This document shows, piece by piece, positions 18,456-53,656 of a DNA stretch of 55,724 nt. A program made the translations under genes and the position numbers. Each line of letters opens with the position of its first letter. Within the stretch, counting starts at the first letter, position 1. Source of the DNA: Deltaproteobacteria bacterium (GTDB lineage: Bacteria > Myxococcota_A > UBA9160 > SMWR01); NCBI GenBank assembly GCA_019310425.1, contig JAFDEI010000007.1:1-55724 (forward strand), written 5' to 3'. The notes beneath the pieces are model-generated. The model saw only the letters and a program-made list of their open reading frames with translations, ran no database searches and was not told where the DNA came from.

Positions 18456-18459
18456 GTCG

Positions 18460-19191: not shown

Positions 19192-20144
19192 GCCCCCTGC
19201 GGCGATGCAGCATCGCCGCCGATGATCACCTTCGCGCCGCCGCCCACCTTCACCGTGTCAGCCTGGAGATCGAATTCGATCCACTCACCCGCGACGCAGT
19301 CGTCACCCTCGCGGAGCTCGGCATTGCCGCGGCAGACCAGCATCTCCTTGGAGCGCTCGTAAGTGGCACTGTCGCAACGGGCCTCGTTCTTGCGGTTCGA
19401 CATGCGCACGCGTCCGGTCGCCACCAATCGCTCGGGCTTACTCGAGTCGGGCGGATAGAAGGCCTCGAGCCGGTTCGATTTGATCGTGACGTCGTCCTGG
19501 GTCACGACGACGTTCTGGGTGAACAACAGCTTCCGCGCTCCGCCGTAGCGCTCCGATTCGAGCTGGTCGGCACGAATCGAAATCGGCCGACCGCTATCGA
19601 ACGCAATTCCGAACCCACCCTCGGACGGTGCCGCGGACACGGCCGGCGCGTCTTCGGGCGAGGTTCCGCCAGCCCCATCGAGCACCTGTCGAGTGAGATC
19701 CTCGACAGCCGCCTCGAGCTGATCGGGCTTCAGAATCTCGGCCACGTAGGTCCCGAGGATCTCACCGGTCGACGCCGATCGCAGCCGCACTTCCACGCTG
19801 ATGGGGACGCCGATCCGCGTGATTCGCCCCACGACGAGCGCCTCGACCTCGGCCTGTTTCGACCACGCCTGCACGGTTTCGGCCGTTGGCTCGGCATCCG
19901 CCTCGACCGAGAGTTCGGCCGGTCCGACGATCTTCTGCACTCCCCGCGTGCCGATCCGATCCGCGAGCAACTGGTCGATGTCGGGCAGAACGACGTCAGG
20001 CGCCGCTCGGCGCTCGAACGGCGCCACCGCGATCGACACTGCCGCAGCGGAAGCGGGCGCGGGCAACGCCACGGCCAGCGTCGTGATGCCGGCGAATAAG
20101 CCCCCGAACCACACCGCAGCGGCAAACGAGCCGGACCGGTTCAT
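19182..20144 (-). CDS. lptA: LptA/OstA-like periplasmic protein with an extra ~160-aa N-terminal domain
   Basis: 320 aa. The C-terminal half is an OstA_N-type beta-jellyroll (LLFTQNVVVTQDDVTIKSNRLEAFY...ATGRVRM...CDSATYERSKEMLVCRGNAELREGD). The N-terminal half (AVSIAVAPFERRAAPDV...ALVVGRITRIGVPISVEVRLRSASTGEILG) is not part of classical LptA. Confidence 0.7.
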   Translation of the reverse strand: MNRSGSFAAAVWFGGLFAGITTLAVALPAPASAAAVSIAVAPFERRAAPDVVLPDIDQLLADRIGTRGVQKIVGPAELSVEADAEPTAETVQAWSKQAEVEALVVGRITRIGVPISVEVRLRSASTGEILGTYVAEILKPDQLEAAVEDLTRQVLDGAGGTSPEDAPAVSAAPSEGGFGIAFDSGRPISIRADQLESERYGGARKLLFTQNVVVTQDDVTIKSNRLEAFYPPDSSKPERLVATGRVRMSNRKNEARCDSATYERSKEMLVCRGNAELREGDDCVAGEWIEFDLQADTVKVGGGAKVIIGGDAASPQGACR

Positions 20145-20683
20145 TGATTCTGCTCCACCGACACGTTGCCCAACATCCGGAATTTCCTCTCGTTCACGTG
20201 GTACTCGAAACCATCGGCACGGAAGCTGCCGGTGTCATCGTTCATCTGGATCGGCGCGCTGGTGTGCAACAGCCCCGATTCGTGATGGTATTCGACCCAC
20301 GGAGCAGAGTACTTCTGCCCATCGGCCGTGGTGCCACGCACCTGCCCCTCAGCCCGAAAGTCGTTGGTCTTCACGTTGAGTTCAGCACGCTCGCAAGTCA
20401 TGTGAAAGCTGTCACCGTCATCCTCGTCGGTGACGACCGCGCGGACCACCTCGAGATCGGCGACATCGCGATCCGGGAAGAAAACCGCGATTTCGGAATG
20501 CAAGATGAGCTCACTCCGATCATCGCGGCTACCGACGAAAGTCATTCCCGTCGCGCGGAGTTCGGTCTCGCCTTCGGCCGACGAAGTCGAAACGGCGGCC
20601 ACCGCCAACAGCAGCGCTACGACCGCCCGCGAACTGCGCGGACCACGTCGCACGGGGTGGAGCCAATTGCGCAAGGGACTCAT
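20141..20683 (-). CDS. lptC: LptC-like LPS export protein
   Basis: 180 aa with an N-terminal anchor (AVVALLLAVAAV), a beta-rich body, and the position immediately upstream of lptA with a 4-nt overlap. Confidence 0.65.
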   Translation of the reverse strand: MSPLRNWLHPVRRGPRSSRAVVALLLAVAAVSTSSAEGETELRATGMTFVGSRDDRSELILHSEIAVFFPDRDVADLEVVRAVVTDEDDGDSFHMTCERAELNVKTNDFRAEGQVRGTTADGQKYSAPWVEYHHESGLLHTSAPIQMNDDTGSFRADGFEYHVNERKFRMLGNVSVEQNQ

Positions 20684-21872: not shown

Positions 21873-22437
21873 TGGGAGACGGCGCCGGCGTCTCCCAGCG
21901 AACCCAGAGTATCCACGTCACGATGGTGACGACGATCAGCACTCCAGGCCAGACCACCTCATGCGCGGTCTTGAAGAAATCGGAGAAGAAGATGCCCATC
22001 CAGTACAGCGTCACGATCCGGAGAATGTTCAAGACCTGGAGCAGTACGATCCCGATCGCGAGTCCACGGAATCGCGCACCCCAGGAAACCGGAAACGCGA
22101 GCACGGCGGCGGCCAGCAACGAGCAGACCTGGATTGCGTCGCAGCCCTGCGCAACCGCAACCGCAAAGTCGCTTCCGGAAATCTGCGACCCGACAACTTT
22201 GACCTCGGTGCCGAACAGATTGAGAACCCATCCGCTGATCGCCGCGAGCACATCCAAGTACGACTTGAATGCTCCACTGTCCAACGCGACTGCGTAGTAG
22301 ACGACTTCGGAAACGACCGCGAAGAAGCCGAACAGCAACGCGAAACGCAGCCAGGGCTCCTGCCCGGGCGGAGGATCTTCGCCTTCGCCCACGACGGTCG
22401 GTGACTGCGGGAATGTTTGCGGTTCCGGCTCACTCAA
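21856..22437 (-). CDS. Short exosortase/archaeosortase-family protein (candidate)
   Basis: 193 aa, all-helical membrane protein carrying the three family hallmarks in order inside TM segments. These are Cys (VAQGCDAIQVCSLLAA), Asn/Arg (LLQVLNILRIVTLYW) and His (FKTAHEVVWPG). The start (TTG 22437) is uncertain. Confidence 0.55.
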   Translation of the reverse strand: MSEPEPQTFPQSPTVVGEGEDPPPGQEPWLRFALLFGFFAVVSEVVYYAVALDSGAFKSYLDVLAAISGWVLNLFGTEVKVVGSQISGSDFAVAVAQGCDAIQVCSLLAAAVLAFPVSWGARFRGLAIGIVLLQVLNILRIVTLYWMGIFFSDFFKTAHEVVWPGVLIVVTIVTWILWVRWETPAPSPIADAA

Positions 22438-22496
22438 AGCAGCCGTAGTCTAACCCAACCCAACCAGTCGGCCCGCGCAGCGACCGGGATCACCGT

Positions 22497-25400
22497 TCAG
22501 GGGTTCACAAGTTCGGTGAGTGCGCGCACCCGGCGGGCCAGCGTCTGACAGATACAGATCGCGATCGCGGGCAGCTCTTCCATCACCCGCAGCAGGTCGT
22601 CGCGACCGATCCGCAGCAACTCGACTCGTTGATCCTCCGCGACGACATCCGCGGTGCGGCGGGCACCTTCGAAGATCGCGACCTCGCCGAAGAAGTCCTT
22701 CGGGCCAAGCTGCGTGAGCACGGTATTGCCCGTGCTGATCGCCACCGTACCTTTGACGATGATGTACATGCAGTCGGAGTACTCACCCTCACGCGAAACC
22801 AGCGTCCCGGCCGGGTAATTCTCCTGTTCCACCAGCTCGGCGACGTTCACCAGCTGGCGGGTCGTCAGCCCCTCGAACAGGGGGACGCCGCGGAGGATCA
22901 ACGCGCATTCGACCGGACTCAGCACTTTGTCATCGTCGTCCACATCGGAGGTCACGGCCAGTCGCGCGCGTTCGCCGAAAATCGCAGCCGCGAACGTCCG
23001 AGTAAGATCATCGGGACTCCGGATCAAGGCCTCGGCCATCTGTTCACCCGACGGTACCCGGATCCCCAGCGCGCGAGCCGCAGCTCGGCCACGATCGGCC
23101 ACGCTGCGATCCTCCATCAACGGCAACAGGGTCTCCTTTTCACCCGGAGACAGCAGCGCCTCGAGGGCCTCGACGAGAATCGCGTACTGCCGACTACCGC
23201 GCGCGCGGCGCAGGGGGTCCGCGAGGGCGTAGATCCGATCGTCGTCGTGCACCGCGCCGAGTAGCTGCAACGCGGTGTGGATCCCCTCGTCGAGTCGCTC
23301 GCCGAGCCGCTGGAGGATGATCGGTGAGAATTCGGCGTGCGCACAAGCGTGGAGCTCGACCAGCTTGTGCCGAATCGAATTGAGCTCACTCTCGTACAAG
23401 CGCTGCAGGGTGTCGCCCCCGAGCTCGAGTTCGCGAACCAGTGGCAAGATCGCCTCGCGTGCGCTGCGTTTGCCGAAGGAGAGCTCGACCAGCAGCGCAT
23501 CGGTCGCGAGCAACCCCAATTCTCGCACCGCGTCGACGGCGGCTGCGCGCACACCGTCCATCTCCTCGCCGCCGTCGCATGCCACCTGTTTCACGAGCCA
23601 ACCCGCGTGCTCTTCGAGCCCGACATGACCGACGAAACGCACGACCGCCTCCCGGACCCTCGGGGCATCGTCTTCCTGCCACGTCAGGACGAGGTCGGTT
23701 GCATCGGCAGCCGCCTCCTGGTGGTTCGCCGCGATGTCGGCGAAGGCCACGGCCTTATCCGCACGATCCTCGATCGGTGTCGGGCTCGAGACGAATTCCG
23801 CGAGCAACCGACGCCACTCGTCGGACGGCTGCCCACGGAGTAGCTCGGCGCGATACTCCTCGCGGGCCGTACGTCGTAGATCCGGGTCCGCGTCGCGGAT
23901 CGCGTCGTGTAACGCCCGCGCGAGATCGGGAACGCCCTGCGGTGCGGCACCGCGGCGATGCAACGCTGCGGCGGCGGCCAGCCGAACCGCGGCCGAGCGG
24001 TCGCCGAGTGAACGCGCGAGGATGCGATCACCGCCGTTCCCGCGCGTCGCCATGCCCTGAGTCACGCGTCCGTAGGCCTGCACGACATCCGAACGGTCGC
24101 AATCACTCAATTCGATCCCCTCGTCGAGTATCTCGGCGAGCTGGGCCGCCGCTGAGTGACTGTCGAGATCGGCAATCACCGCGCGCTCGAGAACGCGGTC
24201 CAGCGCTGCGATCAGCAAGGGTCGTGTGGCGGGAGCCGCCTCGGATGCCGCTTTCGCGAAAATCTCGGAAGCCAGGCCGGGATCCGCCTCTGAAACCAGG
24301 TCGATCGCGATCCGGCAGCTGGCGGGGTCCGGGTCGAGCAGATGGACCCTGAGGCCGCGCAGCGTATTGGGGTCGAGCATCTCGGCCAGGTCGAAGTCCT
24401 GCCCGAAACGGGGACGACCCGACGATGCCTGCATGAGCAACGCCGGGTAGGCGCGCCACAGCACCAGCGCGACGACCAACCACAATGCAGAAACCGGAAG
24501 TGCGAGGAAGCCCACCCAGACCGCTGTGCCGACCTCCACCGCGAGCATCGTCGCAAGGTTTCCCACCGCACCGCCCGCGCGTTTCACCGGGCCTTCGAGC
24601 AACGCCATGGCGCGTGAACGGAACCCTTCAGGTAGCAGGTTGAAGAGCACACGAATCGCGGGATCGTAGACGGCGTTGTCCTGAAGTTTCGTACCCGCCA
24701 TCGCGGCAACGCCTACCGGTAGGCTCAGGCGGACACTCAACCCCATGAAACCGACCAGATAGATGAGCGGCGAGATCGCGGCCGAGAGCGGGATACCGAT
24801 GCGGCGATAGATATTCGAAGCGAGGCCGATCTGCGTGGCGAGCACACCCACGCTGATCCAACCGCGAAACTTCGAGTAGAAATCCATCAGCCTCTCCGCA
24901 CCGTCTTCCCCCTGCGTTGCGAGGTCGGCCACGTACGAGAACTGGAAATAGAGCATTGGCCCGAGTAGCCCGCTGCAGACGGTCATCACCAACAACAGAC
25001 GAAACAAGCGATTTTCATTCCACAGCTCGTGCAGCTTTACCGCGACGCCACCCTCCGGCTCGCCGCCATTGCCTGCGAGGTCGCGGACAGCCGTCGCTTC
25101 GACCGGCCCACCGATGCGCGTGGTGCGAAAGCGACGCAACGGCCATGCCGCGACACCGGCCAGCACCAACGCCCCACCCGAGAGTGGAAACAGCCCGGCG
25201 ATGCCGATCGAGTGGCTGAGCGGATCGGAGGCGAAGCTCCCGAGAATCGTGCCGAGTGTCATTCCCGCCATCAACGGCGCAAACAGCCGTTTCGCCTGGC
25301 GACCGTTCAACAGATCACCGAGCGCGAGGAAAAACACCAGCAGGCCGATCGATTGCAGTTGCTTCGAGGCAATCAACGCCAGGACGAGACCACTCGTGAG

Positions 25401-25703
25401 CTCCTGCGCGACCATGAACCACAGCGGCACCAGCGCGACTCCGAGGATGACGAGCACGACGGGAAGCAGCCTGAGTCGATCGCTGCGATCGGCGATCCGC
25501 CCGACCATGTAAGTGCTTCCGACCAGCAGCAGCGAGTTGACGAGGAAAGCCAAGGGCAGGAACTCGACCCCGACCCCCTTGAGGAAGAGAGTCTCGGAGG
25601 CGTTCTTGACCGAAACATCGGCCCAGCCCAGCAGGAAGAGCACTCCTGCCGCCCAGAAGAACAACCTTCCTTCACCGGGCTCGATTCCGAGCTTCCGCAA
25701 CAT
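22497..25703 (-). CDS. Npt1/TLC-like MFS transporter fused to HEAT repeats and a C-terminal cyclic-nucleotide-binding domain
   Basis: 1068 aa from ATG 25703 (GGAG 9 nt upstream). It has a ~430-aa polytopic N-terminus (MLRKLGIEPGEGRLFFWAAGVLFLLGW...) and a long alpha-helical repeat region (several 'AVRLAAAAAL / VREAVVRFVG'-type HEAT-like units). The C-terminal cNMP domain reads LRGVPLFEGLTTRQL...GEYSDCMYIIVKGTV...LGPKDFFGEVAIFEGARRTADVVA. Confidence 0.75.
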   Translation of the reverse strand: MLRKLGIEPGEGRLFFWAAGVLFLLGWADVSVKNASETLFLKGVGVEFLPLAFLVNSLLLVGSTYMVGRIADRSDRLRLLPVVLVILGVALVPLWFMVAQELTSGLVLALIASKQLQSIGLLVFFLALGDLLNGRQAKRLFAPLMAGMTLGTILGSFASDPLSHSIGIAGLFPLSGGALVLAGVAAWPLRRFRTTRIGGPVEATAVRDLAGNGGEPEGGVAVKLHELWNENRLFRLLLVMTVCSGLLGPMLYFQFSYVADLATQGEDGAERLMDFYSKFRGWISVGVLATQIGLASNIYRRIGIPLSAAISPLIYLVGFMGLSVRLSLPVGVAAMAGTKLQDNAVYDPAIRVLFNLLPEGFRSRAMALLEGPVKRAGGAVGNLATMLAVEVGTAVWVGFLALPVSALWLVVALVLWRAYPALLMQASSGRPRFGQDFDLAEMLDPNTLRGLRVHLLDPDPASCRIAIDLVSEADPGLASEIFAKAASEAAPATRPLLIAALDRVLERAVIADLDSHSAAAQLAEILDEGIELSDCDRSDVVQAYGRVTQGMATRGNGGDRILARSLGDRSAAVRLAAAAALHRRGAAPQGVPDLARALHDAIRDADPDLRRTAREEYRAELLRGQPSDEWRRLLAEFVSSPTPIEDRADKAVAFADIAANHQEAAADATDLVLTWQEDDAPRVREAVVRFVGHVGLEEHAGWLVKQVACDGGEEMDGVRAAAVDAVRELGLLATDALLVELSFGKRSAREAILPLVRELELGGDTLQRLYESELNSIRHKLVELHACAHAEFSPIILQRLGERLDEGIHTALQLLGAVHDDDRIYALADPLRRARGSRQYAILVEALEALLSPGEKETLLPLMEDRSVADRGRAAARALGIRVPSGEQMAEALIRSPDDLTRTFAAAIFGERARLAVTSDVDDDDKVLSPVECALILRGVPLFEGLTTRQLVNVAELVEQENYPAGTLVSREGEYSDCMYIIVKGTVAISTGNTVLTQLGPKDFFGEVAIFEGARRTADVVAEDQRVELLRIGRDDLLRVMEELPAIAICICQTLARRVRALTELVNP

Positions 25704-25838
25704 GAGAACTACTCCAACCCCTGCGCACGATATCACCCCCCGATAGGGGAACCAGCCCTCATCTTCAGCGATTCCGCGGACTTTCGTAGCCATCCCGAGT
25801 CGCCCAGAAGATCGGGAGCCTGCGCTAAAGTGTGCGGC

Positions 25839-28808
25839 ATGATGACCCACACTCCTCTGCGTGCATCACTGGTTTGTCTCACCCTCTTGCTCCTACCTCT
25901 CGCCGCTTTCGGCAAGAGTGCAGTGACGCAACCGGCCAGCCTGCCCGACTCGGCGACACTCACGAAGTGGATCGAGGAAACCAAGCAGTCACCGAAAGGG
26001 CCGTTCGACGCCATCAAGTGGTTCTGTGCCGACGGAACGATCCTGCCGCCGAAAGCCTATGCCTGTGCGAAGCACGGCGGCGGAATCCAGCATGGCCTCT
26101 ATATCGATCGGATCACCAAGATGCGCGAGGGCGGCTACGCGGTCGCCAACCTGATTGCCGATCTGAAATACGATCAGTTCGCAGGCGAAGGGGCCGACCT
26201 GCTGACACTGAGCCAGATCCTGGTCGAGCGATATCTGGTCGGCGTCGACAACGGCTGGATCTTCCGCAACGCCTATACCTACCGCGGTGCGTTCCAGATC
26301 GAAGACGAAGAGGCCGCCGCGGCTGTGATCGTCGCCGCCATGATCCTCGACCCGGCCTGGCGGACACCGGAACGCTTCATGATGGTGCGCGAGACCGTGC
26401 GGCTGTTCCCGCTCCAGGGCGACACGGATCTGGCATCGAAGGTCCGCAACATGGCGATCCAGATCGCGGACAAGGACTCCGGCTTCGCCAAGCTGCGCGC
26501 AAAGATCCACGGCGCGCCGCAACGCGAAGACGCGGCTTCGGTCCGGAGCTACGCAGAGACGAAGGGAAAGCCGGAAATCGCTTCGCTGTACCAGGAGATC
26601 GCGCGAGACATCGAGTCTCTCTACGCAACCGCAGGCTCGATTGCCGCGATCCAGGATCTCGCGAAGCAGACGCAGAATCCCAGCCTGGCCGATTTCCTCC
26701 GCAAGGCTGCCAGACGCCTCGAGTCCAACAGCGACCCGGTCACGCGAATCGAAGCGGCGAGCCAGCTCATGGCCAAACTGCGTGTGATGTTTCAGAAGTC
26801 CCAGGTCGACGCGAGCGGCCTCGAGATCCTCCAGGCCAGTCTCGCCCTCGAACGCGATGCGTTCACCGCCGGCAACACGCTGCTGTCGAACCTCTCGAAG
26901 GCCAACCGCCGCGAGCGCATGCGATGGTTGAGCGTCAGCTCCGAGGGCCTCTACGGCGCCGGTTTCCTGAGCCGCCGGCAGTTCGCGGAGCTGCGCGGCG
27001 AGACCAACAAGGTCGCAAGCAAACGCAAGGTCAACGTCAAGCGCTACCGCGAAATGCTGAACTACCTCGCCCGCGTGCCGGAGTGGTCGTCACGCTGGCT
27101 GGAATTCAACTTCGGGCGAGCCGTCGCGGGCTTCGCGACCTTCGAGCCGCTCGCGCACCTCTACCCGCAGGACCGCCTGCGCGGGAGCCCGGTGCTCTTC
27201 TTCGGCGCGGTCCTCGACAGCCTGGTCCTCGATGCGAACCAGCTGGCGGGCGTGCGTGGCGAATTGTTCGGCCGCAATATCGGAGCGGGCCTGCGTGGGC
27301 TCAACCCCGGCATCGCACGCGGCACGATCCACACTCCGAAGAACCTCGAGGGGGTCGGGAGCTTTGATCGCGAGGGCATCTACCTGCTGCCCGAGACGGT
27401 CTCCGACCTTCCCCCGGTATCCGGCATCCTGACGCAGGGTGAGGGAAGCTCGCTCTCCCACGTGCAGCTGCTCGCTCGGAACCTCGGCATTCCGAATGTG
27501 GTCGTGACCGAGTCACTGCTGCCCGAATTACGCAGCCTTGCCGGGAAGCGCGCGGTTCTCGCCGTCAGCCCCGGCGGCGTGGTTCAACTCAACAGCGACG
27601 GCCCGCAGTGGGACGCGATCTTCGGCACTGACAAGGGCGAGGTCGCCGACACCTCGGTCGAGATCCGTCCCGACCTCGAGAAGCTCGACCTCGACAAGAC
27701 CGGTATCCTCGAAATCAGCAAGCTTCGCGCGACCGACTCGGGTCGTTCTTCCGGGCCGAAGGGCGCCAACCTCGGCGAGCTCAAGTTCTACTTCGGTGAG
27801 CAGGTCCCCGACGGCGTCGTCATCCCGTTCGGCACGTTCCGGAAGGTGCTCGACCAGCCGCTCGAACCCGGCGGGCCCAAAGTCTTCGACTGGATGAAGC
27901 AGAGCTACGCAGAGATCGCAGAGCTCGACTCGAAACCCGAGGCGCAGAAGAAGCAGGTGTCCGCTTTCCTCGCGAAGCTCCGCGAGTGGATCACAAACGT
28001 CGATATCGGTGATGATTTTCGCAACAGCCTGCGCGACACACTCGAACGGAAATTCGGCCCCGATGGAACCTATGGCGTCTTCGTTCGCAGCGACACCAAC
28101 GTCGAGGACCTCGCCGGCTTCACGGGAGCCGGCTTGAACCTCACGGTGTTCAACGTCGTCGGCTTCGACAACATTCTCGCCGCGATCCATGACGTGTGGG
28201 CGTCGCCGTTCACCGAACGCGCCTACGGCTGGCGCCAGGGCAACATGAGCGATCCCGCCTACGTGTTTCCCGCGGTCGTTATCCAGGTCGCGTTTCCATC
28301 CGAGAAATCCGGCGTGATGGTCACCACCGACGTCGACCAGGGCGTTCCGGGCTGGCTGTCGATCGCCGTCAGCGAAGGCGTCGGCGGTGCGGTAGACGGC
28401 CAGGCCACCGAATCACTCCGCGTCAACTCCAGGACCGGTGAAGTGCAATTTCTCGCACAAGCGACCGCACCCGAGCGAACCGTACTGCTTTCGACCGGCG
28501 GAGTCGGCATGGCCCGTGCGAGCGGAACTGCGGCGGTGTTGAAGCGCGAAGAGATCGACAAGCTGATCGCGTTCGCAAGTGACGTCTCCAAGTTCCCATC
28601 GCTACGCGACGAGCAGGGCAACGAATTGCCCGCGGACATCGAGTTCGGCTTCAAGAACGGCACGCTCGCAATGCTCCAGATCCGCCCGTTCGTCGAGAGC
28701 GCCGCTGCTCAGCAGAACCTGTACCTACAACAGCTCGACGCGGGCCTGAGCGAGCGAGAACAGGCCATGGTCGATATCGACGGCATGCCGGGATCGGTAA
28801 CGCCGTAG
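25839..28808 (+). CDS. Signal-peptide-bearing dikinase-like protein: unknown N-domain + phosphohistidine swivel domain + PPDK_N-type ATP-grasp domain
   Basis: 989 aa from ATG 25839 (in frame with track ORF 25029..28808). Signal peptide MMTHTPLRASLVCLTLLLLPLAAFG/KS. The swivel motif is GIARGTIH...GIYLLPETVSDLPPVSGILTQGEGSSLSHVQLLARNLGIPNVVV. The nucleotide-binding domain reads GPKGANLGEL...VPDGVVIPFGTF...VFVRSDTNVEDLAGFTGAGLNLTVFNV...PAVVIQVAFPSEKSGVMVTTD...SEGVGGAVDG. Confidence 0.8.
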   Translation: MMTHTPLRASLVCLTLLLLPLAAFGKSAVTQPASLPDSATLTKWIEETKQSPKGPFDAIKWFCADGTILPPKAYACAKHGGGIQHGLYIDRITKMREGGYAVANLIADLKYDQFAGEGADLLTLSQILVERYLVGVDNGWIFRNAYTYRGAFQIEDEEAAAAVIVAAMILDPAWRTPERFMMVRETVRLFPLQGDTDLASKVRNMAIQIADKDSGFAKLRAKIHGAPQREDAASVRSYAETKGKPEIASLYQEIARDIESLYATAGSIAAIQDLAKQTQNPSLADFLRKAARRLESNSDPVTRIEAASQLMAKLRVMFQKSQVDASGLEILQASLALERDAFTAGNTLLSNLSKANRRERMRWLSVSSEGLYGAGFLSRRQFAELRGETNKVASKRKVNVKRYREMLNYLARVPEWSSRWLEFNFGRAVAGFATFEPLAHLYPQDRLRGSPVLFFGAVLDSLVLDANQLAGVRGELFGRNIGAGLRGLNPGIARGTIHTPKNLEGVGSFDREGIYLLPETVSDLPPVSGILTQGEGSSLSHVQLLARNLGIPNVVVTESLLPELRSLAGKRAVLAVSPGGVVQLNSDGPQWDAIFGTDKGEVADTSVEIRPDLEKLDLDKTGILEISKLRATDSGRSSGPKGANLGELKFYFGEQVPDGVVIPFGTFRKVLDQPLEPGGPKVFDWMKQSYAEIAELDSKPEAQKKQVSAFLAKLREWITNVDIGDDFRNSLRDTLERKFGPDGTYGVFVRSDTNVEDLAGFTGAGLNLTVFNVVGFDNILAAIHDVWASPFTERAYGWRQGNMSDPAYVFPAVVIQVAFPSEKSGVMVTTDVDQGVPGWLSIAVSEGVGGAVDGQATESLRVNSRTGEVQFLAQATAPERTVLLSTGGVGMARASGTAAVLKREEIDKLIAFASDVSKFPSLRDEQGNELPADIEFGFKNGTLAMLQIRPFVESAAAQQNLYLQQLDAGLSEREQAMVDIDGMPGSVTP

Positions 28809-28829
28809 TCGCGTATCAGAGACGGCGCA

Positions 28830-28851
28830 GGCGCGGGCAGCTGCCCGCGCC
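28830..28851. terminator. Perfect 22-nt GC-rich palindrome between convergent genes (possible bidirectional terminator hairpin)
   Basis: ggcgcgggc-agct-gcccgcgcc is self-complementary. It lies in the 45-bp gap between the stops at 28808 (+) and 28854 (-). It has no flanking T-run, so it is not a canonical intrinsic terminator. Confidence 0.45.
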
Positions 28852-28853
28852 GA

Positions 28854-29849
28854 TCAGGACGTCACGCCGTAGATGATGTCGTCGAGGGCCGTGATGATCT
28901 GGTCGAGCCAGACAGCGCCGTTCTTGTCGTTGCTGAGGACGACGGCGATGTACTTCCGGCCGTCGTGTTCGACGATCGCGCTGTCCGAGTGGTAGGTGCT
29001 CCAGGAACCCGACTTGCGGAACAGGGCTGCGGACGGATCCGTGCGACCCAACGCTTTCACGAACTTGTGTTTCAGCAGTGAATTGCCGAGGATGTCCTTC
29101 ATCTTCCGGCTGTGTTCCGGCGTGACGAGCTTCTCGGTCTCGAGCAGGTAGTAGAAGCGCGCCACCTGCATCGCGGTCGCGCCGTGCGAGAGGTTGTGCA
29201 GCGGATCGCGCCGCCACAGTCCCGACTTCGCGTAATCCTTGCCCACCCAGAGGCCGCCGTTGTGCTTGGGATCGTAGAGGCGATAGCGCGGCGACAGCAG
29301 AACACGCGCAATGTACTCCTTGCCGACTCGCTGCATCATCTCGGTCGCCGCCGTATTCGATGAGGCCTTGATCATCTTGTGCAGCTGCCATTCGGTCTCG
29401 AAGTCAAGCTTCATCTTGCCTTCGGCAATCTTTTCGAACGCTCCGAGCAGCACGGCGATCTTCGGCAAGCTCGCCGCGTACATCATCACGTCGCCGTTTA
29501 TCGAGGCCACGCGCGGCTTCGCCTTGTGAGTGACGTCGACCAGCACGACGGCCAGACGCTTCCGGCGCGCGTCGTCTGCGAGCTTCAGACGCTCGAGTGC
29601 AAGCGTGACGTCCTTCTGCAGCTGTGCATCGACGTAATCCCACAGGGGCGCGTCATCCTCGAAAGGCGCAATCTCGTCGAGCGCGTGCATGCCCTTGAGG
29701 ATCCGGTCTTCGATCACGTCCCAAGGGACGTCCTCGGGCGCCGGAACCGCGATCGAGCCACCGGGAATCTCGTCCGCAACAGCGGCTCCCCCCGCGAGCA
29801 AGGCCAACAGGGTCAGGAGACCGATCAATCTACGGCTATTCGGTGCCAT
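28854..29849 (-). CDS. Secreted class-A beta-lactamase-fold serine hydrolase
   Basis: 331 aa from ATG 29849: signal peptide MAPNSRRLIGLLTLLALLAGGAAVA, then SxxK (ASLPKIAV), SxN (ASSNTAA) and KxG (RKSGSWS) in the correct order and spacing. The ATG lies 14 nt inside the upstream transporter gene. Confidence 0.75.
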   Translation of the reverse strand: MAPNSRRLIGLLTLLALLAGGAAVADEIPGGSIAVPAPEDVPWDVIEDRILKGMHALDEIAPFEDDAPLWDYVDAQLQKDVTLALERLKLADDARRKRLAVVLVDVTHKAKPRVASINGDVMMYAASLPKIAVLLGAFEKIAEGKMKLDFETEWQLHKMIKASSNTAATEMMQRVGKEYIARVLLSPRYRLYDPKHNGGLWVGKDYAKSGLWRRDPLHNLSHGATAMQVARFYYLLETEKLVTPEHSRKMKDILGNSLLKHKFVKALGRTDPSAALFRKSGSWSTYHSDSAIVEHDGRKYIAVVLSNDKNGAVWLDQIITALDDIIYGVTS

Positions 29850-31296
29850 CCGGCAAAATCGCCTCCGAAGCTTTGCGGTGCTCACGAATCAGCACCACCG
29901 CGAACCAGATCCAGACCAGAACCAAGGCCACGTTGAACGCGAAGAAGGTACCGGTCTCCAGATCCAACCACTGAACCCCGATCAGGATCGTCAGCGCCGC
30001 CAGACCGTCCCCCATCCGGACATAAAGGGTATCGATCGCCGGCTTCCCGCGAAACTTCATCTCAGAGCTCACCGGCAGCCAGAGCACGTGTCGCGCGGTG
30101 TTGTTGAGCGAGTAATCCGTAGCATTTTCGGCGATCTTCATGAGCTTCACGATCGCGAGAACGGGCAGGAGCGCCATGATGGTGTAGGAGATCAGCGCGA
30201 TCACCGGCAAGATCATCAGCAACGGCGCGAAACCTCCGTATTTGAGGAGCCGCGACGCCACCAGCGATTGCAGCGCCAACGCTACGATGTTCACCCAGAA
30301 GAAAAAGTTCCCATAGAAGGCCGTCGTGCCGCTCTTGACGAATTCGTCTACCGCCCGCTCCCCGACGATACCCTGCTCCACGACCTGACTCGTGAGAGAC
30401 TCGTTCACCACGGCGTACAGCAGGTTTTCGCCGTTCGTATTGACCCAGTTGAGCAGCAGCGTCACAAGCGCGGCTGCGAGGATGAAGCGGCTCACGAAGA
30501 CCAGGCGTGCGCCACTCAGCAGAAACTGGAGTCCTTCGCCCTTCTGTTCTCCATCACCCTCGGGGGACAGCGGCGCCTGAGTCACATCGACGGCCTTGCC
30601 CGCGTCACGCTCGCGCGCCTCCACGATGCGCGTGAGCACAATGGACGCCAGCAGTGGAGCAATGGCGACCAGGAGCAGGTACTCGTTGGGCACGACGGCG
30701 GTCTTGGTCACCTCGTCCACTCGCGTCAACTCGCCGACGATCCACGACGCCGCGGCCGCGCCCGAAGTCGCACCGATCGCGATCATCGGCATCATTCGCT
30801 TGCCGCGTTCGTCGGTGTAGATGTCCGCGCAGAAGGTCCAGAACTGGGCGACGACGAACACCCCGAATATCCCCACCCAGAGATAGAAGAGGATCCCGGA
30901 CCACGGAAGCTTCCCGAAGAAGACGTCCGGCTGAAGGAAGAAGAAGACCAGCATGTTCGAGATGCAGAACAGGGTCGCGCGCGTGAAGAGCGGCGTTCGT
31001 CCCCAGCGCACTGCGAGCTGCCCGTACCAGCCGACGATCGGCAGAAGCAGCAGGGCCTGCGCGAAGCTCGAATACGCCTTGACCTCGATCGGCGCGAGCC
31101 CCACGATACCCGAGATCGACAGCCAACCTTCGCGCAACGGCTTGATGAAATAGTAGGCGCAGAGGATCAGGAAGACGTTCGCGAACATCAGCAGCGCAGT
31201 CGGCCCCTCGCCGGGGCGGACCTCGGTGAAGATTCGCAGGATGCGCTCGGTCCTCGAAAGCTGATTACTGGCCACGATTCCGACCCCGGGGCTCAA
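29836..31296 (-). CDS. Npt1/Npt2 (TLC, ATP:ADP antiporter)-family MFS transporter homologue
   Basis: 486 aa with about 12 TM. The N-terminal pattern RILRIFTEVRPGEGPTALLMFANVFLILCAYYFIKPLREGW parallels both the transporter domain at 22497..25703 and, from memory, the chlamydial/rickettsial Npt1 N-terminus (..KKVLPMFLMFF.I.FNYTILRDTKD). The start (TTG 31296 or a nearby GTG) is uncertain. Confidence 0.6.
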   Translation of the reverse strand: MSPGVGIVASNQLSRTERILRIFTEVRPGEGPTALLMFANVFLILCAYYFIKPLREGWLSISGIVGLAPIEVKAYSSFAQALLLLPIVGWYGQLAVRWGRTPLFTRATLFCISNMLVFFFLQPDVFFGKLPWSGILFYLWVGIFGVFVVAQFWTFCADIYTDERGKRMMPMIAIGATSGAAAASWIVGELTRVDEVTKTAVVPNEYLLLVAIAPLLASIVLTRIVEARERDAGKAVDVTQAPLSPEGDGEQKGEGLQFLLSGARLVFVSRFILAAALVTLLLNWVNTNGENLLYAVVNESLTSQVVEQGIVGERAVDEFVKSGTTAFYGNFFFWVNIVALALQSLVASRLLKYGGFAPLLMILPVIALISYTIMALLPVLAIVKLMKIAENATDYSLNNTARHVLWLPVSSEMKFRGKPAIDTLYVRMGDGLAALTILIGVQWLDLETGTFFAFNVALVLVWIWFAVVLIREHRKASEAILPDGTE

Positions 31297-31447
31297 GCCC
31301 CCGCGCCCGCAATGTAGTATCGGGTGCGGCCCGAAGCGAGGCGGAAGCGCGGATTGTTCGAATCATCCAGATCCGGGCGGATCGAGGGCGAGGGCGAGGA
31401 GAACTTTGCTGGGCGAGCCTTCGAGCACACGGAGTGTTGGCTCTGGA

Positions 31448-32257
31448 TCAGAACTCCACGTCGTTGAACGTCAACGCGACCTGCCAGGTCTTGAACGACA
31501 AGGTATCGCCGACCGCAGCTGCCGCGTACGCGATCGATTCATGGACCTCTTCCAGCAGCACGATCCCGCGAACCCGCTGCACCTTGCCGCTCAGATGCTT
31601 CGAAACCCAGCCGATTCGCTGGAGCATGTCCGCGATCAGGTCGGCGCCGTCATCGCAGCCGGCCACCATCACCACCACCAGACCACCCTGGGCATCCCGG
31701 GCGAGCAGGTCGATCTCGCCCACCGCCGACGTATACCCGACTCCCTGCGGCGTGCCCTTTTCGCTGGTGTAGATGGACAGACCGGGCTCGAGGAGCTCGG
31801 GTTGTTCGGCCAGCATCGCACGCAGTCCGTCCGGATCCGGTGAACCGACGGCTCGCGTCTTCGATCCGCTCGACACGGTCGGCGGATCGTCCTTCTCCTC
31901 GATCTCGTCCGACTCGGCCTCGCCCTTCGGAGCCCCGACCCGCGAGGGAACGTTCAATTCGACCTCAGCCGGCTCGTTCAGCTCGACTTCGGCGGGTTCT
32001 TCCAGCTCGACCTCGGGCACTTGATCCGTCATCTCTTCCACCTCGGCGGTCACGTCCAGCTCCTGGGAATCTCGGAGCTCGACATTCGTTTCACAGTCGG
32101 CCTGCGGCAGTGCCGTCCGCAAACGCGTCGGGCGGTCGGGCGTTCTCTGAATCGCGTTGCTTCCGCAATTCGGGCAGGCACTCCGCCCCTTGGCAATGCG
32201 GGTATTACAGACCTTGCAGAACATTCTGTTCTCCCTGGAATGAGCATCCGGGAACAC
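31448..32257 (-). CDS. Zinc-ribbon protein with acidic repeat linker and NucS/DUF91-like (PD-(D/E)xK fold) C-terminal domain, catalytic motif apparently degenerate
   Basis: 269 aa. It has CKVCNTRIAKGRSACPNCG (a CxxC...CxxC ribbon) and the tandem peptide PEVELEEPAEVELNEPAEVELN. The C-terminal part LEPGLSIYTSEKGTPQGVGYTSAVGEIDLLARDAQGGLVVVMVAGCDDG...VRGIVLLEE resembles 'GxIDLLxxD..G..vvvExK' of NucS, but with MVA in place of ExK. Confidence 0.5.
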   Translation of the reverse strand: MFPDAHSRENRMFCKVCNTRIAKGRSACPNCGSNAIQRTPDRPTRLRTALPQADCETNVELRDSQELDVTAEVEEMTDQVPEVELEEPAEVELNEPAEVELNVPSRVGAPKGEAESDEIEEKDDPPTVSSGSKTRAVGSPDPDGLRAMLAEQPELLEPGLSIYTSEKGTPQGVGYTSAVGEIDLLARDAQGGLVVVMVAGCDDGADLIADMLQRIGWVSKHLSGKVQRVRGIVLLEEVHESIAYAAAAVGDTLSFKTWQVALTFNDVEF

Positions 32258-32561: not shown

Positions 32562-33869
32562 GTGGCGCGAATACACCTTTGTCTCGGAGCTCTGCAATTC
32601 TTGCTGGTCGTGGCCGCACCGCTTCCACTACACGCAGACGAACACACCCTCGAGGACCACACCACGCTCTCGAGCGAGACCGACGCCGGCCCGGGCCTGT
32701 GGAGCGTAGCGCCCGAACGGGCCAACGAAGCGACACCCAGCGACGAGCAGCGCCGCACGATCGAGCAGCTGCAGGCGATTGGATACGTAGCCGGCTCGAG
32801 CGAGCCACGCGGCAACGGGATCACGTTGAACGACCCAGCCCGCGCATGGCCCGGAATCAATCTCTACACCTCGGGTCACGAACCCGTCGCGATCCTGATG
32901 GACATGGAGGGGCGTGAACTCCACCGCTGGAAATTCGAGTACCGCGACGCCTTTCCGGACTCGATCTGGGTCGACCACCCCAACACCGCGTGGTGGCGGC
33001 GCGCCTATCTCTACCCCAACGGCGACCTCCTCGCGATCGTCGAAGGCTTCGCCCTGCTGAAGCTCGACAAGAACTCGGAGCTGCTCTGGGCCAGCCCCGT
33101 CAGCGCCCACCACGACCTCGACATCCGTCCAAACGGCGATATCTACGTCCTGACTCGCGAGGCGAGCATCATTCCGAGAGTGAACCCGGAGGATCCGGTA
33201 CTCGAAGATTTCATCACGATCCTGCGACCGGACGGAACGGAGAAACAGAAGGTCTCGCTGCTCGAAGCATTCGAGAGTTCGAAGTTCGTGAACCTCTATC
33301 GCTCGCAGAATCGGAACCACGGCGACCTTTTCCATACCAACAGCCTGGAAGTCCTCGACGATCGCCTCAGCAAGCGCATGCCCGCCTTCCGGGCCGAGCG
33401 AATTCTCATTTCGATGAACAACCTGAGCGTGATCGCCGTCGTCGATCTCGATCAGCAGCGCGTGGAATGGGCGGTCAAGGGCGGCAGCCGCGGCCAGCAC
33501 GACCCGAAAATACTCGACGACGGCCATCTGCTGCTGTTCGACAACCGTTCGACACCCGGCGTTTCGAAGGTGCTGGAGTTCGACCTCTCGAAGGGGCGCA
33601 CGGTCTGGCAGTACCGCGGCACGAAGCAGCATCCGTTCTTCTCGAAGCATCTCGGAACCGCACAGCGCCTCCCGAACGGCAACACGCTGATCACCGAATC
33701 CGAATCCGGTCGTGCGTTCGAGGTAAGCCACGACAAGCGGATCGTCTGGGAGTTCTTCAATCCCCATCGAGCCGGCGAGAACGATCGCTATATCGCGACG
33801 ATCTTCGAGTTGCTGCGCCTGCCGCTCGACTTTCCGCTCGACTGGCTACCGAAGCACACGGGCGGCTGA
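32562..33869 (+). CDS. Arylsulfotransferase (ASST)-family beta-propeller protein, secreted
   Basis: 435 aa with signal peptide MARIHLCLGALQFLLVVAAPLPLHA. The repeated propeller-like segments carry HHDLDIRPNGDIYVL, LFHTNSLEVL, QHDPKILDDGHLLLFDN and AQRLPNGNTLITES, typical of the Arylsulfotran_2 family as I remember it. Confidence 0.65.
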   Translation: MARIHLCLGALQFLLVVAAPLPLHADEHTLEDHTTLSSETDAGPGLWSVAPERANEATPSDEQRRTIEQLQAIGYVAGSSEPRGNGITLNDPARAWPGINLYTSGHEPVAILMDMEGRELHRWKFEYRDAFPDSIWVDHPNTAWWRRAYLYPNGDLLAIVEGFALLKLDKNSELLWASPVSAHHDLDIRPNGDIYVLTREASIIPRVNPEDPVLEDFITILRPDGTEKQKVSLLEAFESSKFVNLYRSQNRNHGDLFHTNSLEVLDDRLSKRMPAFRAERILISMNNLSVIAVVDLDQQRVEWAVKGGSRGQHDPKILDDGHLLLFDNRSTPGVSKVLEFDLSKGRTVWQYRGTKQHPFFSKHLGTAQRLPNGNTLITESESGRAFEVSHDKRIVWEFFNPHRAGENDRYIATIFELLRLPLDFPLDWLPKHTGG

Positions 33870-33877: not shown

Positions 33878-35533
33878 TCAGCCTTCGGAATCGATCACGC
33901 CGACGGGCGGCGGTTCGGTCGGTGCGCCGGGAATCACGATCCGCGGTGGAAACCGGAACGCGAGTTCGAGATTCTCCCTGAAATCGTGGTGGTTGTAGAT
34001 CTTCCGCTCGATCACTTCGATCGAAGCGAGGTTCGCGACCACCCATGCCGGTGCGCGGCCGGCTTCGACCGCGCGCCGGTACAACCCCGGGCCGACGATC
34101 GCCGCATCGCGCTCGATGCGAACGATGTCCTTCGAAAGCGGGATCAACGGCGTCTTGTGCCCGGGCTTGAGCCAGCCCGCCTCGGTTCGCGCGAGCACTG
34201 CGTCGGTCAGGCCGAAGCCGTGCACCCAGCGGTCGCGAATTCCGACGTATTGCCTGCGGCACCAGGTGCCCGCGAGTATTCGCGCGTAGCCCCGGGCCGC
34301 GACCTGCCGCCCTGCCCCACGCAGCATTTCGGGATTCATCCTGGCCGAGAACAGCTCCGGCTGGAGGCTCGCATGCCGGCGATGCCAAGCTGCATCGTCG
34401 ATGAAATCGACGGGCTCGTGCCCGCCCCCACCGAAGAAGGGGTGTACGGAGAGCTGAGGGGGGACCATGAAGAAGACTCCCAGCGAGACGCCGAGCATGG
34501 TCACCGGACCCAGTACCCGCCGTCGCCCCACATCGCGACCGCACATCGCCGCTTCGAGAATTCCGGCTGAAGCACAGACCGCAAGCGAAAAGGGAAACGC
34601 CAGGTACCAGTAGTGGACGTGGCTGCCGCCGACGCGGGCCACATAGGCCGCGATCACTCCCGCGATCACGAGCATCGCAATGCGTTCGCTCGCGTGAGAT
34701 CTGGACTCAGCCGTACCGGACTGCTTCGCACGTTGGCGCACGAAGAGCGCGACCCCGACCACCACGGCAGCGAATCCTGCCACGTGATAGGTCCCGGCAG
34801 TGTCGAGGAGGTAACGCCAGCCCTGCTCGAAATGAACGCCGTCCTTCAGATAGAAGGTATTGGGAAGCAGATCCGCGTAATAGTGGATTCGAAACACCAG
34901 CCAACCACCACTCGCGACCATCGAGGCGACGAGCAACGACCATGGAAATTCCCGAAATCGCCACCACACGAACAACGCAGCCAGGCCGACTGCGAGCGCG
35001 AGCTCCGGCCGAGCCAATGGAGCGAGCGCGAGCAGCGCCGCAAGCCACCGCGACTGCGGCCGCAGCAAGTACAGCGCGAGCGTGGGTGCCATCAGGTGCG
35101 CGAGTGGAGTCTCGAGTCCGGAGGTGAAGAACGAGTCCAGCCCATAATTGGTGACGAGATATGCAAGCGGCAGGTTCAGGATCACGGAATCGCGTGGAGA
35201 GAGTTCCCGGTTGAGAGTGACGAGCAGAGCCCAGAAACCCATGAAGGCAGCACATCCGACGCCCGTGACGATCGCGGGCCAACTCAGCCCGAGCACCCGC
35301 AATGCGATCAACAACAGGCAGTGGAGCGGGCTACTGAATCCCTCGACGAATTCGCCCGCGTTGTAGACGAGACCGAGCTTCATGAACAGCAAGTTGTCGA
35401 CGTAGCGGAAGTAGACGAAGGAATCGTCCATCAGCCAGCGATATCGCACGACGAGCGTGAGGCCAATCGCGAGGTACAGCCATTCGAGTGCGGTCGGGCG
35501 CGGCAACGCGACGTTCCGCGTGGGCGCGCTCAC
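33878..35533 (-). CDS. GT-C-like polytopic membrane protein (paralogue 1) with C-terminal soluble domain
   Basis: 551 aa from GTG 35533, which makes a GTGA overlap with the upstream stop. First-loop motif YRWLMDDSFVYFRYVDNLLFMKLGLVYNAGEFVEGFSSPLH, followed by multiple TM helices and LLPNTFYLK. Confidence 0.6.
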   Translation of the reverse strand: MSAPTRNVALPRPTALEWLYLAIGLTLVVRYRWLMDDSFVYFRYVDNLLFMKLGLVYNAGEFVEGFSSPLHCLLLIALRVLGLSWPAIVTGVGCAAFMGFWALLVTLNRELSPRDSVILNLPLAYLVTNYGLDSFFTSGLETPLAHLMAPTLALYLLRPQSRWLAALLALAPLARPELALAVGLAALFVWWRFREFPWSLLVASMVASGGWLVFRIHYYADLLPNTFYLKDGVHFEQGWRYLLDTAGTYHVAGFAAVVVGVALFVRQRAKQSGTAESRSHASERIAMLVIAGVIAAYVARVGGSHVHYWYLAFPFSLAVCASAGILEAAMCGRDVGRRRVLGPVTMLGVSLGVFFMVPPQLSVHPFFGGGGHEPVDFIDDAAWHRRHASLQPELFSARMNPEMLRGAGRQVAARGYARILAGTWCRRQYVGIRDRWVHGFGLTDAVLARTEAGWLKPGHKTPLIPLSKDIVRIERDAAIVGPGLYRRAVEAGRAPAWVVANLASIEVIERKIYNHHDFRENLELAFRFPPRIVIPGAPTEPPPVGVIDSEG

Positions 35534-51804: not shown

Positions 51805-52007
51805 CACGCCTCCCATGCCAACCAGAACTCTCGTCCGGCCGTTCACCAGCCATATTCGTCGTTAGTCGGCTCTCATGCCGCGGCGTGCTGCGCGGATCCC
51901 AAGCGCCCGTCCGACCACCACGTCGCGGCAATCGATCCTACGCTAGCATCGAGATCGTGCCTCTTGCAGACCGACGGTATTTTGCCCGACAGATGAACCG
52001 TCCAATT

Positions 52008-53651: not shown

Positions 53652-53656
53652 TTCAA

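Follow-up and report, generated by a model that had tools for sequence, protein, structure and literature searches.

A gene module of several bacterial phyla combines a dikinase-like protein with predicted export, serine enzymes of the beta-lactamase fold and a TLC/NTT-family carrier

The subject of this study is a group of four genes, A to D (Table 1), in a 55,724-nucleotide stretch of DNA from a Deltaproteobacteria bacterium (GTDB lineage Bacteria; Myxococcota_A; UBA9160; SMWR01), which comprises positions 1 to 55,724 of the forward strand of contig JAFDEI010000007.1 in assembly GCA_019310425.1 and is referred to throughout as the window. Gene A encodes a transporter with a C-terminal cyclic nucleoside monophosphate (cNMP)-binding domain, B a dikinase-like enzyme whose export is strongly indicated by its sequence, C a serine enzyme of the class A beta-lactamase/PBP-A fold, and D a carrier of the TLC/NTT family. 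The combination of B, C and a TLC-family carrier recurs in dozens of loci from several phyla, far beyond what chance would produce, and constitutes a module that is real, ancient and very probably a functional unit. Elsewhere, its core consists of four genes, namely B, C, the TLC/NTT carrier (D in the window) and E, which encodes a second serine enzyme. The window holds a reduced copy of this wider module, in which E has been lost and A has been gained.

An earlier note, made by a model from the DNA sequence alone, had described the four window genes as a candidate envelope module in which cNMP-gated nucleotide export might feed a periplasmic phosphotransfer reaction. This interpretation is partly supported. 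The composition does appear to be undescribed, as no published account was found of the module, of an exported dikinase, of periplasmic ATP fed by a carrier, or of the combination of B, C and carrier genes. The window lacks one of the four core genes, and the transporter with the cNMP-binding domain is found in about a dozen Myxococcota loci only.

Conservation of the module across phyla

Relatives of B were collected by scanning one genome per GTDB species, which gave at least 588 loci; the best 80 of these were analysed, and loci are cited here by L-number. They belong to the Myxococcota, Desulfobacterota, Gammaproteobacteria, Zetaproteobacteria and Nitrospirota, with Guyparkeria hydrothermalis, Mariprofundus ferrooxydans PV-1 and Mariprofundus micogutta as cultured carriers of B. 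Synteny was counted from clustered crude calls of open reading frames (ORFs) around B, and a locus was considered well flanked when it extended at least 5 kb downstream and at least 3.5 kb upstream of B. Among the 34 well-flanked loci, C is present in 31, a TLC-family gene lies within 6 kb in 31, and E is present in 29; all three accompany B in 25. The strand and side of the carrier gene vary between lineages while its linkage to B is kept, and the flanks beyond B, E, C and the carrier consist of unrelated, lineage-specific housekeeping genes, such as plsX-fabHDG in Mariprofundus and panB and others in the Desulfobacterales.

Sampling from the carrier gives a similar picture, with five of six D homologues on long contigs located beside PPDK_N and Beta-lactamase2 genes. 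The cross-genome synteny of dikinase, beta-lactamase-fold protein and TLC carrier, on which the earlier note had made its proposal depend, thus holds across phyla and in both sampling directions. The module occupies one chromosomal locus, in single copy and uniform in composition, and its proteins are 45-60% identical across loci, which excludes one recently transferred island.

Some lineages add a phosphatase. An acid phosphatase gene of the PF03767 family is located in the cluster in five of the six D-homologue contexts, which are Gammaproteobacterial versions of the module (L081 and L082 represent one context), and it directly adjoins the carrier gene in L083-L086. Two further loci, L029 and L060, contain a lipoprotein-type PF03767 phosphatase detected by tblastn; the window contains none. 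A lipobox is present in some copies, which are similar to enzymes of the class C/e(P4) type, and the family includes periplasmic 5'-nucleotidases, such as e(P4) of Haemophilus.

Two minor observations concern the sampled loci. A few Myxococcota loci share exported proteins with weak similarity to EipA or to transglutaminases. The labels of several metagenome-assembled genomes, namely L012 (Nitrosopumilus sp.), L002 (Opitutales) and L005, L013 and L023 (Spirochaetales), clash with their Myxococcota-like module sequence, which displays 51-59% identity to the B of the window and the same gene order; mis-binning is likely.

The dikinase-like protein B

Protein B has more than 360 homologues, at least 120 of which are essentially full length and 53-89% identical. 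Among 1.84 billion representatives, a profile of its N-terminal 476 residues retrieved 756 clusters at 50% identity. Throughout the 150 best matches listed, this domain occupies aa 30-500 of proteins of ∼980 aa, and the architecture of B is therefore fixed; no other protein context of the domain, and hence no hint of a substrate, was seen among these 150 matches. The swivel and PPDK_N domains named in the earlier note are both recovered by Pfam, the PEP-utilizers swivel (PF00391) at aa 517-561 with 25.1 bits (cut-off 23.1) and PPDK_N (PF01326) at aa 639-959 with 121.5 bits (cut-off 27).

An AlphaFold model of B, with a predicted local distance difference test score (pLDDT) of 87 and a predicted template modelling score (pTM) of 0.83, consists of a leader helix, a small alpha/beta head followed by ∼20 helices (together aa 38-470), a beta-rich domain that contains His541, and an ATP-grasp domain. 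The head comprises 60 aa and harbours a pair of cysteines, and the helical domain that follows it contains many invariant arginines. Modelled alone, the helical domain reaches a pLDDT of 84.

The catalytic motifs of B are well preserved. His541 does not vary among 113 sequences, and its counterpart in the alignment with phosphoenolpyruvate (PEP) synthase 8a8e is the catalytic T-S-H. In the ATP-grasp domain, the residues invariant in the same 113 sequences are K641 (GPKGANLGE), R750, S751, E756 and D757 (RSDTNVED), D933 and E935, and Q947 and R949; hidden Markov model alignments match GPKGANLGE, RSDTNVEDL, ADIEF and LQIRP to the motifs that form the ATP site in PEP synthase and rifampin phosphotransferase. 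The leader, the cysteine pair, the catalytic histidine as well as the ATP-site motifs are kept across more than 200 B members, and the catalytic apparatus, as judged from these motifs, is intact.

In Foldseek comparisons with the model, the ATP domain of B matches rifampin phosphotransferase 5hv6 most closely (template modelling score 0.89, E 1e-12), followed by HpeI, PEP synthase and pyruvate phosphate dikinase (PPDK). The solved relatives found are limited to the ATP-grasp domain; the helical domain has no fold neighbour in the PDB (best Foldseek E 0.6) and no sequence match there. The possibility that B is a circularly permuted rifampin phosphotransferase was rejected on this ground. All NCBIfam matches of B lie far under their cut-offs, with 18-104 bits against 456-1700; the best partial matches include RIF_Ptrans_rph, and the prodigiosin ligase models are also missed widely. 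On its sequence and model, B is best called a new dikinase subfamily with a GWD-like architecture.

Predicted export of B

The leader of B was called by heuristics on charge, hydrophobicity and cleavage motif. It was detected in at least 185 of the 208 full-length members; 15 are unclassified, most of them with a visibly hydrophobic leader, and the eight members without one begin at a conserved internal methionine and probably represent mis-called starts. The earlier note had raised the concern that the signal peptide could be an artefact of the chosen start, which this distribution refutes.

In 198 members, the net charge averages +2.8 before the hydrophobic stretch and -0.3 over the next 20 aa, the median length of the uncharged stretch is 21 aa, and a small-x-small motif lies at its end in 185. 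This charge bias predicts an N-in orientation, in which the body of B would lie outside the cytoplasm with the leader either cleaved or retained. The invariant Cys63/Cys76 pair directly follows the leader. C, E and, where present, the acid phosphatase carry signal peptides or lipoboxes of their own.

The carriers

The earlier note had read both A and D as TLC-like nucleotide transporters. This holds for D, which is recognised by the Pfam TLC model (PF03219) with 30.3 bits (cut-off 21) and whose only PDB relatives are two chains deposited as 'ADP,ATP carrier protein 1', namely 9j3j, the chloroplastic carrier, and 9j3n. For A, Pfam reports MFS_1 with 36 bits; the note had allowed that the transporters could score as generic members of the MFS, and this applies to A and not to D or the other module carriers. 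The N-terminal PGEG motif that the note had seen in both proteins is indeed common to them. The relationship between A and D is distant (BLAST E 0.002; hhalign 92.5%), and hhalign of A against the module TLC carriers gives 94.8% and 92.5% over 355-379 columns, values that any MFS pair might approach. The link of A to the TLC family is founded on this profile-profile similarity and on a published architecture, NTT-HEAT-cNBD, described by Major, Embley and Williams in 2017 as widespread and uncharacterised in free-living bacteria (PMC5381601).

The putative three-part layout of A resembles these fusions and to that extent has already been described. Of the regulatory tail proposed in the earlier note, the cNMP-binding domain (PF00027) stands, with 70.8 bits (cut-off 27.5) at aa 961-1042, whereas the HEAT region remains below threshold, with 18.5 bits for HEAT_2 and 17.1 bits for HEAT; the homologue in L004 reaches 21 bits for HEAT_2. 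A is located divergently upstream of B in L001-L007, L010, L011, L013, L023 and L052, and L046 carries it at another place in the locus. It does not belong to the core but was added in a single Myxococcota clade. A defence-system reading was rejected, as the only PADLOC matches linked the cNMP domain of A to Pycsar effectors, with nothing for B, C or D.

The carriers of other lineages differ from D. In the Gammaproteobacteria, Zetaproteobacteria and Desulfobacterota, the module carrier is a shorter protein of ∼430 aa that matches Pfam TLC with 55-75 bits (L030, L041, L068) and is ∼25% identical to D over its full length (hhalign 99.8%). A third kind consists of 700-aa TLC-HEAT fusions in L016, L042, L071 and L080-L083, of which the L081 protein matches Pfam TLC with 48 bits. 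At least three mutually distant carrier branches, namely the D type, the short Gamma/Desulfo/Zeta type and the long HEAT-fused types, have been placed beside B.

The serine enzymes C and E

The motifs S127xxK130, S163xN165 and K279SG281 of C, noted earlier as SxxK, SxN and KxG, are each at least 95% conserved in 55 family members and invariant in alignment A4. The only solved relative found for C is PBP-A (Tll2115) of Thermosynechococcus, at E 2e-4. No equivalent of Glu166, the general base in the Omega loop that serves deacylation in class A beta-lactamases, was found among the invariant or 90%-conserved columns between SxN and KSG, and C looks more like a penicillin-binding peptidase or an esterase than a true beta-lactamase.

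E is an exported protein of ∼430 aa, encoded in most relatives immediately downstream of B on the same strand, between B and C. It displays the motifs S123/K126 (SVGK), S205/N206 (SSN) and K341-S-G, each at least 95% conserved, and is paralogous to C (hhalign 98.3%, with the motifs aligned). E differs from C in a large insertion and in an invariant cysteine pair of its own; it has a signal peptide. No solved relative of E was found in the PDB, and neither C nor E matched any NCBIfam model. Neither the window nor L001, its nearest genomic relative, contains E, and in both B and C abut.

Both proteins share the PF13354 fold and the SxxK, SxN and KSG motifs with PBP-A and the class A beta-lactamases. 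They differ from these enzymes in the absence of a conserved Omega-loop glutamate and in sequence distance, which is very large for C and beyond detection in the PDB for E. A gene annotated 'PG_binding_1' in L084 proved to be the C-terminal half of a frameshifted E and was not used as evidence for peptidoglycan.

Comparison with known systems

One of the closest likenesses of B is to the plant and algal alpha-glucan, water dikinases GWD1 and PWD. In the model of B, the domain order is an all-helical domain of ∼20 helices, a histidine domain and a C-terminal PPDK-type ATP domain. The catalytic core of potato StGWD1 has a central domain of 20 helices, for which its authors report no PDB equivalent, followed by histidine and ATP domains (PMC13553574). 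The two helical domains are likened by description, and the GWD central-domain structures 9HA9 and 9QVI, published in August 2026, were not among the PDB matches of B. By analogy with GWD, the expected chemistry of B would be ATP + acceptor-OH + H2O -> AMP + acceptor-P + Pi. B differs from GWD in that no CBM45 or CBM20 match is found by Pfam, the starch-binding modules being absent, in having a Sec-type leader in place of a transit peptide, so that its compartment would be the periplasm, and in being partnered with PBP-like serine enzymes instead of amylases.

In non-green plastids, GWD acts on starch with ATP that a TLC/NTT carrier has imported, and the polymer is reset by a glucan phosphatase. 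Members of the same two families are genetically linked in the bacterial module, to which some lineages add a phosphatase.

PEP synthase, PPDK, rifampin phosphotransferase and the phenolic phosphate synthases HpeI and BsPPS share with B homologous ATP-grasp and swivel domains and an aligned catalytic histidine. In these enzymes, the ATP-grasp domain comes first and the histidine domain later, an order that is permuted in B; PEP synthase and PPDK end with a PEP/pyruvate-binding barrel, and in rifampin phosphotransferase the rifampin-binding domain lies between the ATP-grasp and a C-terminal histidine domain. The PEP/pyruvate TIM barrel of PEP synthase and PPDK is absent from B according to both Pfam and the model; on B, the NCBIfam models of PEP synthase reach 26-104 bits where 598-1063 are required, and that of pyruvate phosphate dikinase 18 where 456 are required. 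The rifampin phosphotransferase model NF041857 scores 88.6 bits against a cut-off of 999, and the N-terminal domain of B finds no chain of that enzyme by Foldseek or by sequence. All of these enzymes are cytoplasmic, whereas B has the appearance of an exported protein.

The TLC/NTT family includes Tlc1 of Rickettsia, Npt1 and Npt2 of Chlamydia and NTT1 of plastids. D and the other module carriers resemble these proteins in passing the Pfam TLC threshold, with 30-75 bits. D differs in falling far under the cut-off of TIGR00769, the model of characterised ATP/ADP exchangers (31.4 bits against 387), and the implied role is supply of the cell's own periplasm as opposed to theft of ATP from a host. 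Guyparkeria and Mariprofundus are free-living autotrophs and not energy parasites, which makes canonical energy parasitism by ATP import unlikely in the hosts of the module.

LpxT is the only established periplasmic phosphorylation found in the literature search, and, like the reaction proposed for B, it phosphorylates a component of the envelope at the periplasmic face of the membrane. LpxT avoids a nucleotide donor, in our reading because the periplasm is without ATP; the B module would be an ATP-driven alternative. The donor in the phosphorylation of lipid A by LpxT is undecaprenyl pyrophosphate and not a nucleotide (PMC2229476).

Proposed mechanism

The following scheme would account for the composition of the module. 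D, in the inner membrane, would carry cytoplasmic ATP outward in exchange for periplasmic AMP or ADP, possibly together with phosphate. B, exported by its Sec-type leader, would bind this ATP in its periplasmic ATP-grasp domain and pyrophosphorylate His541, with the terminal phosphate passed to water; the swivel domain would then move the remaining phosphate to an acceptor hydroxyl held by the helical domain, yielding acceptor-phosphate, AMP and Pi. C, and E where it is present, would act on the substrate of B, and their PBP-like active sites suggest that this is a peptide- or ester-bearing envelope component such as peptidoglycan. The PBP-like partners, together with the many invariant arginines of the putative acceptor domain, point to an anionic, peptide- or ester-bearing envelope component, with peptidoglycan as the obvious candidate. 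In the one Myxococcota clade that has it, A would serve as a second carrier, whose flux a cyclic nucleotide would adjust through the presumed cytoplasmic HEAT and cNMP tail. What is observed is the domain content, with intact motifs and export signals, and the linkage of the genes across phyla; which way the carriers transport and what they transport, that B acts as a dikinase, what its acceptor is and that A has a regulatory role are inferred. As a whole, a mechanism of ATP-exporting carrier, exported dikinase and PBP-like enzymes seems to us evenly poised between right and wrong.

A broader version of this scheme can be formulated, to which we would assign only a small probability. Some diderm bacteria may possess an ATP-energised periplasm, in which ATP export by NTT-family carriers powers a GWD-like dikinase. 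This enzyme would phosphorylate, in a reversible manner, an insoluble polymer of the envelope, with peptidoglycan or a glycan bound to it as the most plausible target. Phosphorylation would open the polymer to the PBP-like serine enzymes, and in some lineages a phosphatase would reset it, by analogy with the logic of starch phosphorylation and dephosphorylation during breakdown in plastids.

Several observations weigh against the carrier-fed scheme. To our knowledge, every characterised TLC carrier imports nucleotides into the compartment that holds its soluble face, and we know of no TLC carrier that serves the periplasm. The cargo of D may be something other than ATP, given its shortfall against TIGR00769, and the membrane domain of A finds no Pfam TLC match even at E<=10. 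Three well-flanked loci, including that of M. ferrooxydans PV-1 (L057), contain B or B, E and C with no adjacent carrier, and one D homologue (L087) occurs without the module. The absence of E from the window shows that E is dispensable at least in this clade. The signal-peptide call for B is founded on heuristics rather than on SignalP or experiment, and its putative acceptor domain is without a known relative.

Alternative explanations

An alternative direction of transport is that of salvage or import, in which the module would process a compound of external or periplasmic origin and the TLC carriers bring in a nucleotide, a species derived from AMP or adenosine, or the phosphorylated product, while B obtains its donor from elsewhere or runs towards nucleotide formation. 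The characterised TLC/NTT carriers are all importers or inward exchangers (PMC5381601). A nucleotidase-family acid phosphatase is present in many Gammaproteobacterial clusters, beside the carrier in four, and the D homologue in L087 adjoins a gene for a PpnN-type nucleotide nucleosidase. However, B keeps all of its ATP-grasp and swivel motifs and needs a nucleoside triphosphate where it is folded, in a periplasm without a known source, and it contains no PEP/pyruvate barrel or other high-energy donor domain for reverse operation. The observations in favour of import are accounted for equally by an exchanger that moves ATP out and AMP in, and a role in salvage is considered unlikely.

A second alternative concerns the substrate and is compatible with the supply of ATP by a carrier. 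The module could be an island for the inactivation of xenobiotics or antibiotics, with B as a periplasmic small-molecule phosphotransferase, akin in action to rifampin phosphotransferase or the phenolic phosphate synthetases, and C and E as beta-lactamase-type hydrolases directed against cell-wall-active or phenolic compounds. The closest structures to the ATP domain of B are indeed rifampin phosphotransferase and HpeI, a phenolic dikinase component, RIF_Ptrans_rph is among its best partial NCBIfam matches, and both serine enzymes show the beta-lactamase fold and the complete set of three motifs. The acceptor domain of B is nevertheless unlike the rifampin-binding domain and the domain order differs, while C is without the conserved Glu166 position and has the DD-peptidase-like PBP-A as its only solved relative. 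A single-copy chromosomal locus kept in chemolithoautotrophs and sediment bacteria of several phyla fits a housekeeping role in the envelope better, which renders an inactivation island distinctly unlikely.

The location of B may also be questioned. If the hydrophobic segment were a membrane tether, the body of B would use cytoplasmic ATP, as the otherwise cytoplasmic or stromal ATP-grasp dikinases do, and the carriers would be unrelated or merely co-regulated; that export was called by heuristics leaves room for this view. It conflicts with the charge bias around the hydrophobic stretch, which predicts N-in, with the frequent small-x-small cleavage-type motif and the invariant cysteine pair after the leader, and with the export of both C and E, and it leaves unexplained the repeated, independent recruitment of carriers beside B. 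We regard a cytoplasmic B as very improbable. A chance neighbourhood of four genes with no functional unity, to which the individual commonness of the domains, the clade restriction of A and the missing E might incline a reader, is close to dismissed by the retention of C and of a TLC carrier beside B in 31 of 34 loci each, despite rearrangements and unrelated flanks, by the reciprocal sampling from D and by the overlap of D and C.

Significance

In the textbook view, the periplasm is without ATP, and envelope chemistry uses lipid-linked or pre-activated donors and energy transduced at the inner membrane. An ATP-fed exported dikinase, if confirmed, would be a direct exception, in which some bacteria deliberately supply periplasmic ATP. 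It would also bear on the question, posed in 2017, of which role NTT carriers and their fusions to HEAT/cNMP domains play in free-living bacteria; an ATP-energised periplasm would be the first function for the NTT and NTT-HEAT-cNBD carriers of such organisms and would hint at a bacterial antecedent of the plant pairing of GWD and NTT. The dikinase subfamily defined here has an acceptor domain without a known fold neighbour and could lead to a phosphate modification of the cell envelope that has so far escaped notice, which would matter for cell-wall biology. The module is experimentally tractable, since cultured carriers exist in Guyparkeria and Mariprofundus.

Organisation of the locus in the window

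The reading frames of A, B, C and D are all present at the positions and on the strands reported in the earlier note (Table 1). C and D overlap as it had described, with the ATG of C at 29849, 14 nt inside the 3' end of D, whose TAG stop occupies 29836-29838. A GGAGG lies 12 nt upstream of the C ATG, and the arrangement is consistent with co-transcription and translational coupling of D and C.

The divergent arrangement of A and B, 135 bp apart, is likewise as first described. An alignment of 12 orthologous A/B intergenic regions was used to assess the conservation of the 10-mer ACGATATCAC, which occurs exactly at the matching place in seven A-type loci (L001, L002, L004, L005, L006, L011 and L013). 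Outside the A-type position, only two occurrences were found in 87 loci, and the window contains one exact copy. The 10-mer may be a -10 or extended -10 promoter element, or an operator, for A. The DNA around the start of B (25821..25841) is also conserved across loci. Many relatives read ATGCTGCGCCGCATG here, which gives the N-terminus MLRRM; the window has AAAGTGTGCGGCATG at this place, where a GTG at 25830 could serve as an alternative start. B may therefore begin three codons upstream of 25839, and the leader is unaffected either way.

B and C converge, with a gap of 45 bp that contains a perfect GC-rich palindrome, likely a bidirectional terminator hairpin. The palindrome is without a T-run and was not called by a consensus terminator scan that requires one; promoter and terminator consensus scans over 22300..31500 gave nothing useful.

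Table 1. Positions of the genes, domains and sequence elements discussed in the text. Positions refer to the window unless a locus number is given.
Feature	Position	Strand	Description
Gene A	22497..25703	-	1068 aa; polytopic transporter, HEAT-like region and C-terminal cNMP-binding domain (ORF, Pfam)
A cyclic-nucleotide-binding domain	22578..22823	-	aa 961-1042; intact phosphate-binding cassette GEVAIFEGARRTA
A HEAT-like helical region	22914..24296	-	aa 470-930; presumed cytoplasmic
A membrane domain	24324..25703	-	aa 1-460; ∼11 hydrophobic segments (hydropathy); PGEG; MFS_1 37.5 bits
A/B divergent intergenic region	25704..25838	.	135 bp
10-mer ACGATATCAC	25727..25736		24-33 nt upstream of the A ATG; includes the palindrome GATATC
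Gene B	25839..28808	+	989 aa; dikinase-like enzyme, predicted exported (ORF, Pfam)
B leader	25839..25913	+	aa 1-25; predicted Sec-type signal peptide or signal anchor, MMTHTPLRASLVCLTLLLLPLAAFG followed by K
B putative acceptor-binding domain	25926..27248	+	aa 30-470; alpha/beta head, then ∼20 helices
B cysteine pair	C63 26025-26027, C76 26064-26066	+	invariant columns
B phosphohistidine swivel domain	27258..27638	+	aa 474-600; PF00391
B catalytic His541	27459-27461	+	within the invariant motif GEGSSLSHVQLLARNLGIPNVV; codon checked
B C-terminal ATP-grasp domain	27696..28718	+	aa 620-960; PF01326
Palindrome GGCGCGGGCAGCTGCCCGCGCC	28830..28851	.	22 bp, perfect, GC-rich; B/C convergent gap; read from the sequence
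Gene C	28854..29849	-	331 aa; predicted exported serine enzyme, class A beta-lactamase/PBP-A fold (Beta-lactamase2, PF13354, 73 bits)
C/D overlap ATGGCACCGAATAG	29836..29849	-	14 nt; D 3' end with C start
Gene D	29836..31296	-	486 aa; TLC/NTT-family carrier, core transporter of the module (PF03219)
Gene E, examples	L057 12850..14112; L068 12896..14176		
PF03767 acid phosphatase	L081 4415..5257; L083 9463..10128; L084 9427..10098; L085 9453..10271; L086 9563..10447		

Neighbouring genes

The module is surrounded by genes of diverse predicted function. Upstream of it, on the minus strand at 16959..20683, lies a string of rpoN (sigma-54), lptB, lptA-like and lptC-like genes, which confirms a diderm host and is not conserved beside the module elsewhere. 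The segment 21168..22437, directly downstream of A, encodes a 193-aa exosortase/EpsH-like membrane protein (PF09721, 26 bits, matched only in the C-terminal part of that model), whose gene overlaps by 17 nt with that of a 234-aa membrane protein without a family match. Directly upstream of D on the same strand, 31448..32257 encodes a 269-aa protein that combines an N-terminal zinc ribbon, an acidic repeat-rich linker and a weakly NucS_C-like C-terminus; it is not conserved beside the module.

Further along, 32562..33869 encodes an exported arylsulfotransferase-like beta-propeller (PF14269, 80 bits). It is adjoined at 33878..37020 by two overlapping genes for large polytopic membrane proteins (563 and 496 aa, no Pfam match) and share the N-terminal motif Y.SYRY..NL..G.GLVYN.GE.VEGFS; these are probably paralogous glycosyltransferase-like enzymes. 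The GC content of the window is 0.56 at 52001..54000 and 0.60-0.68 in the rest.

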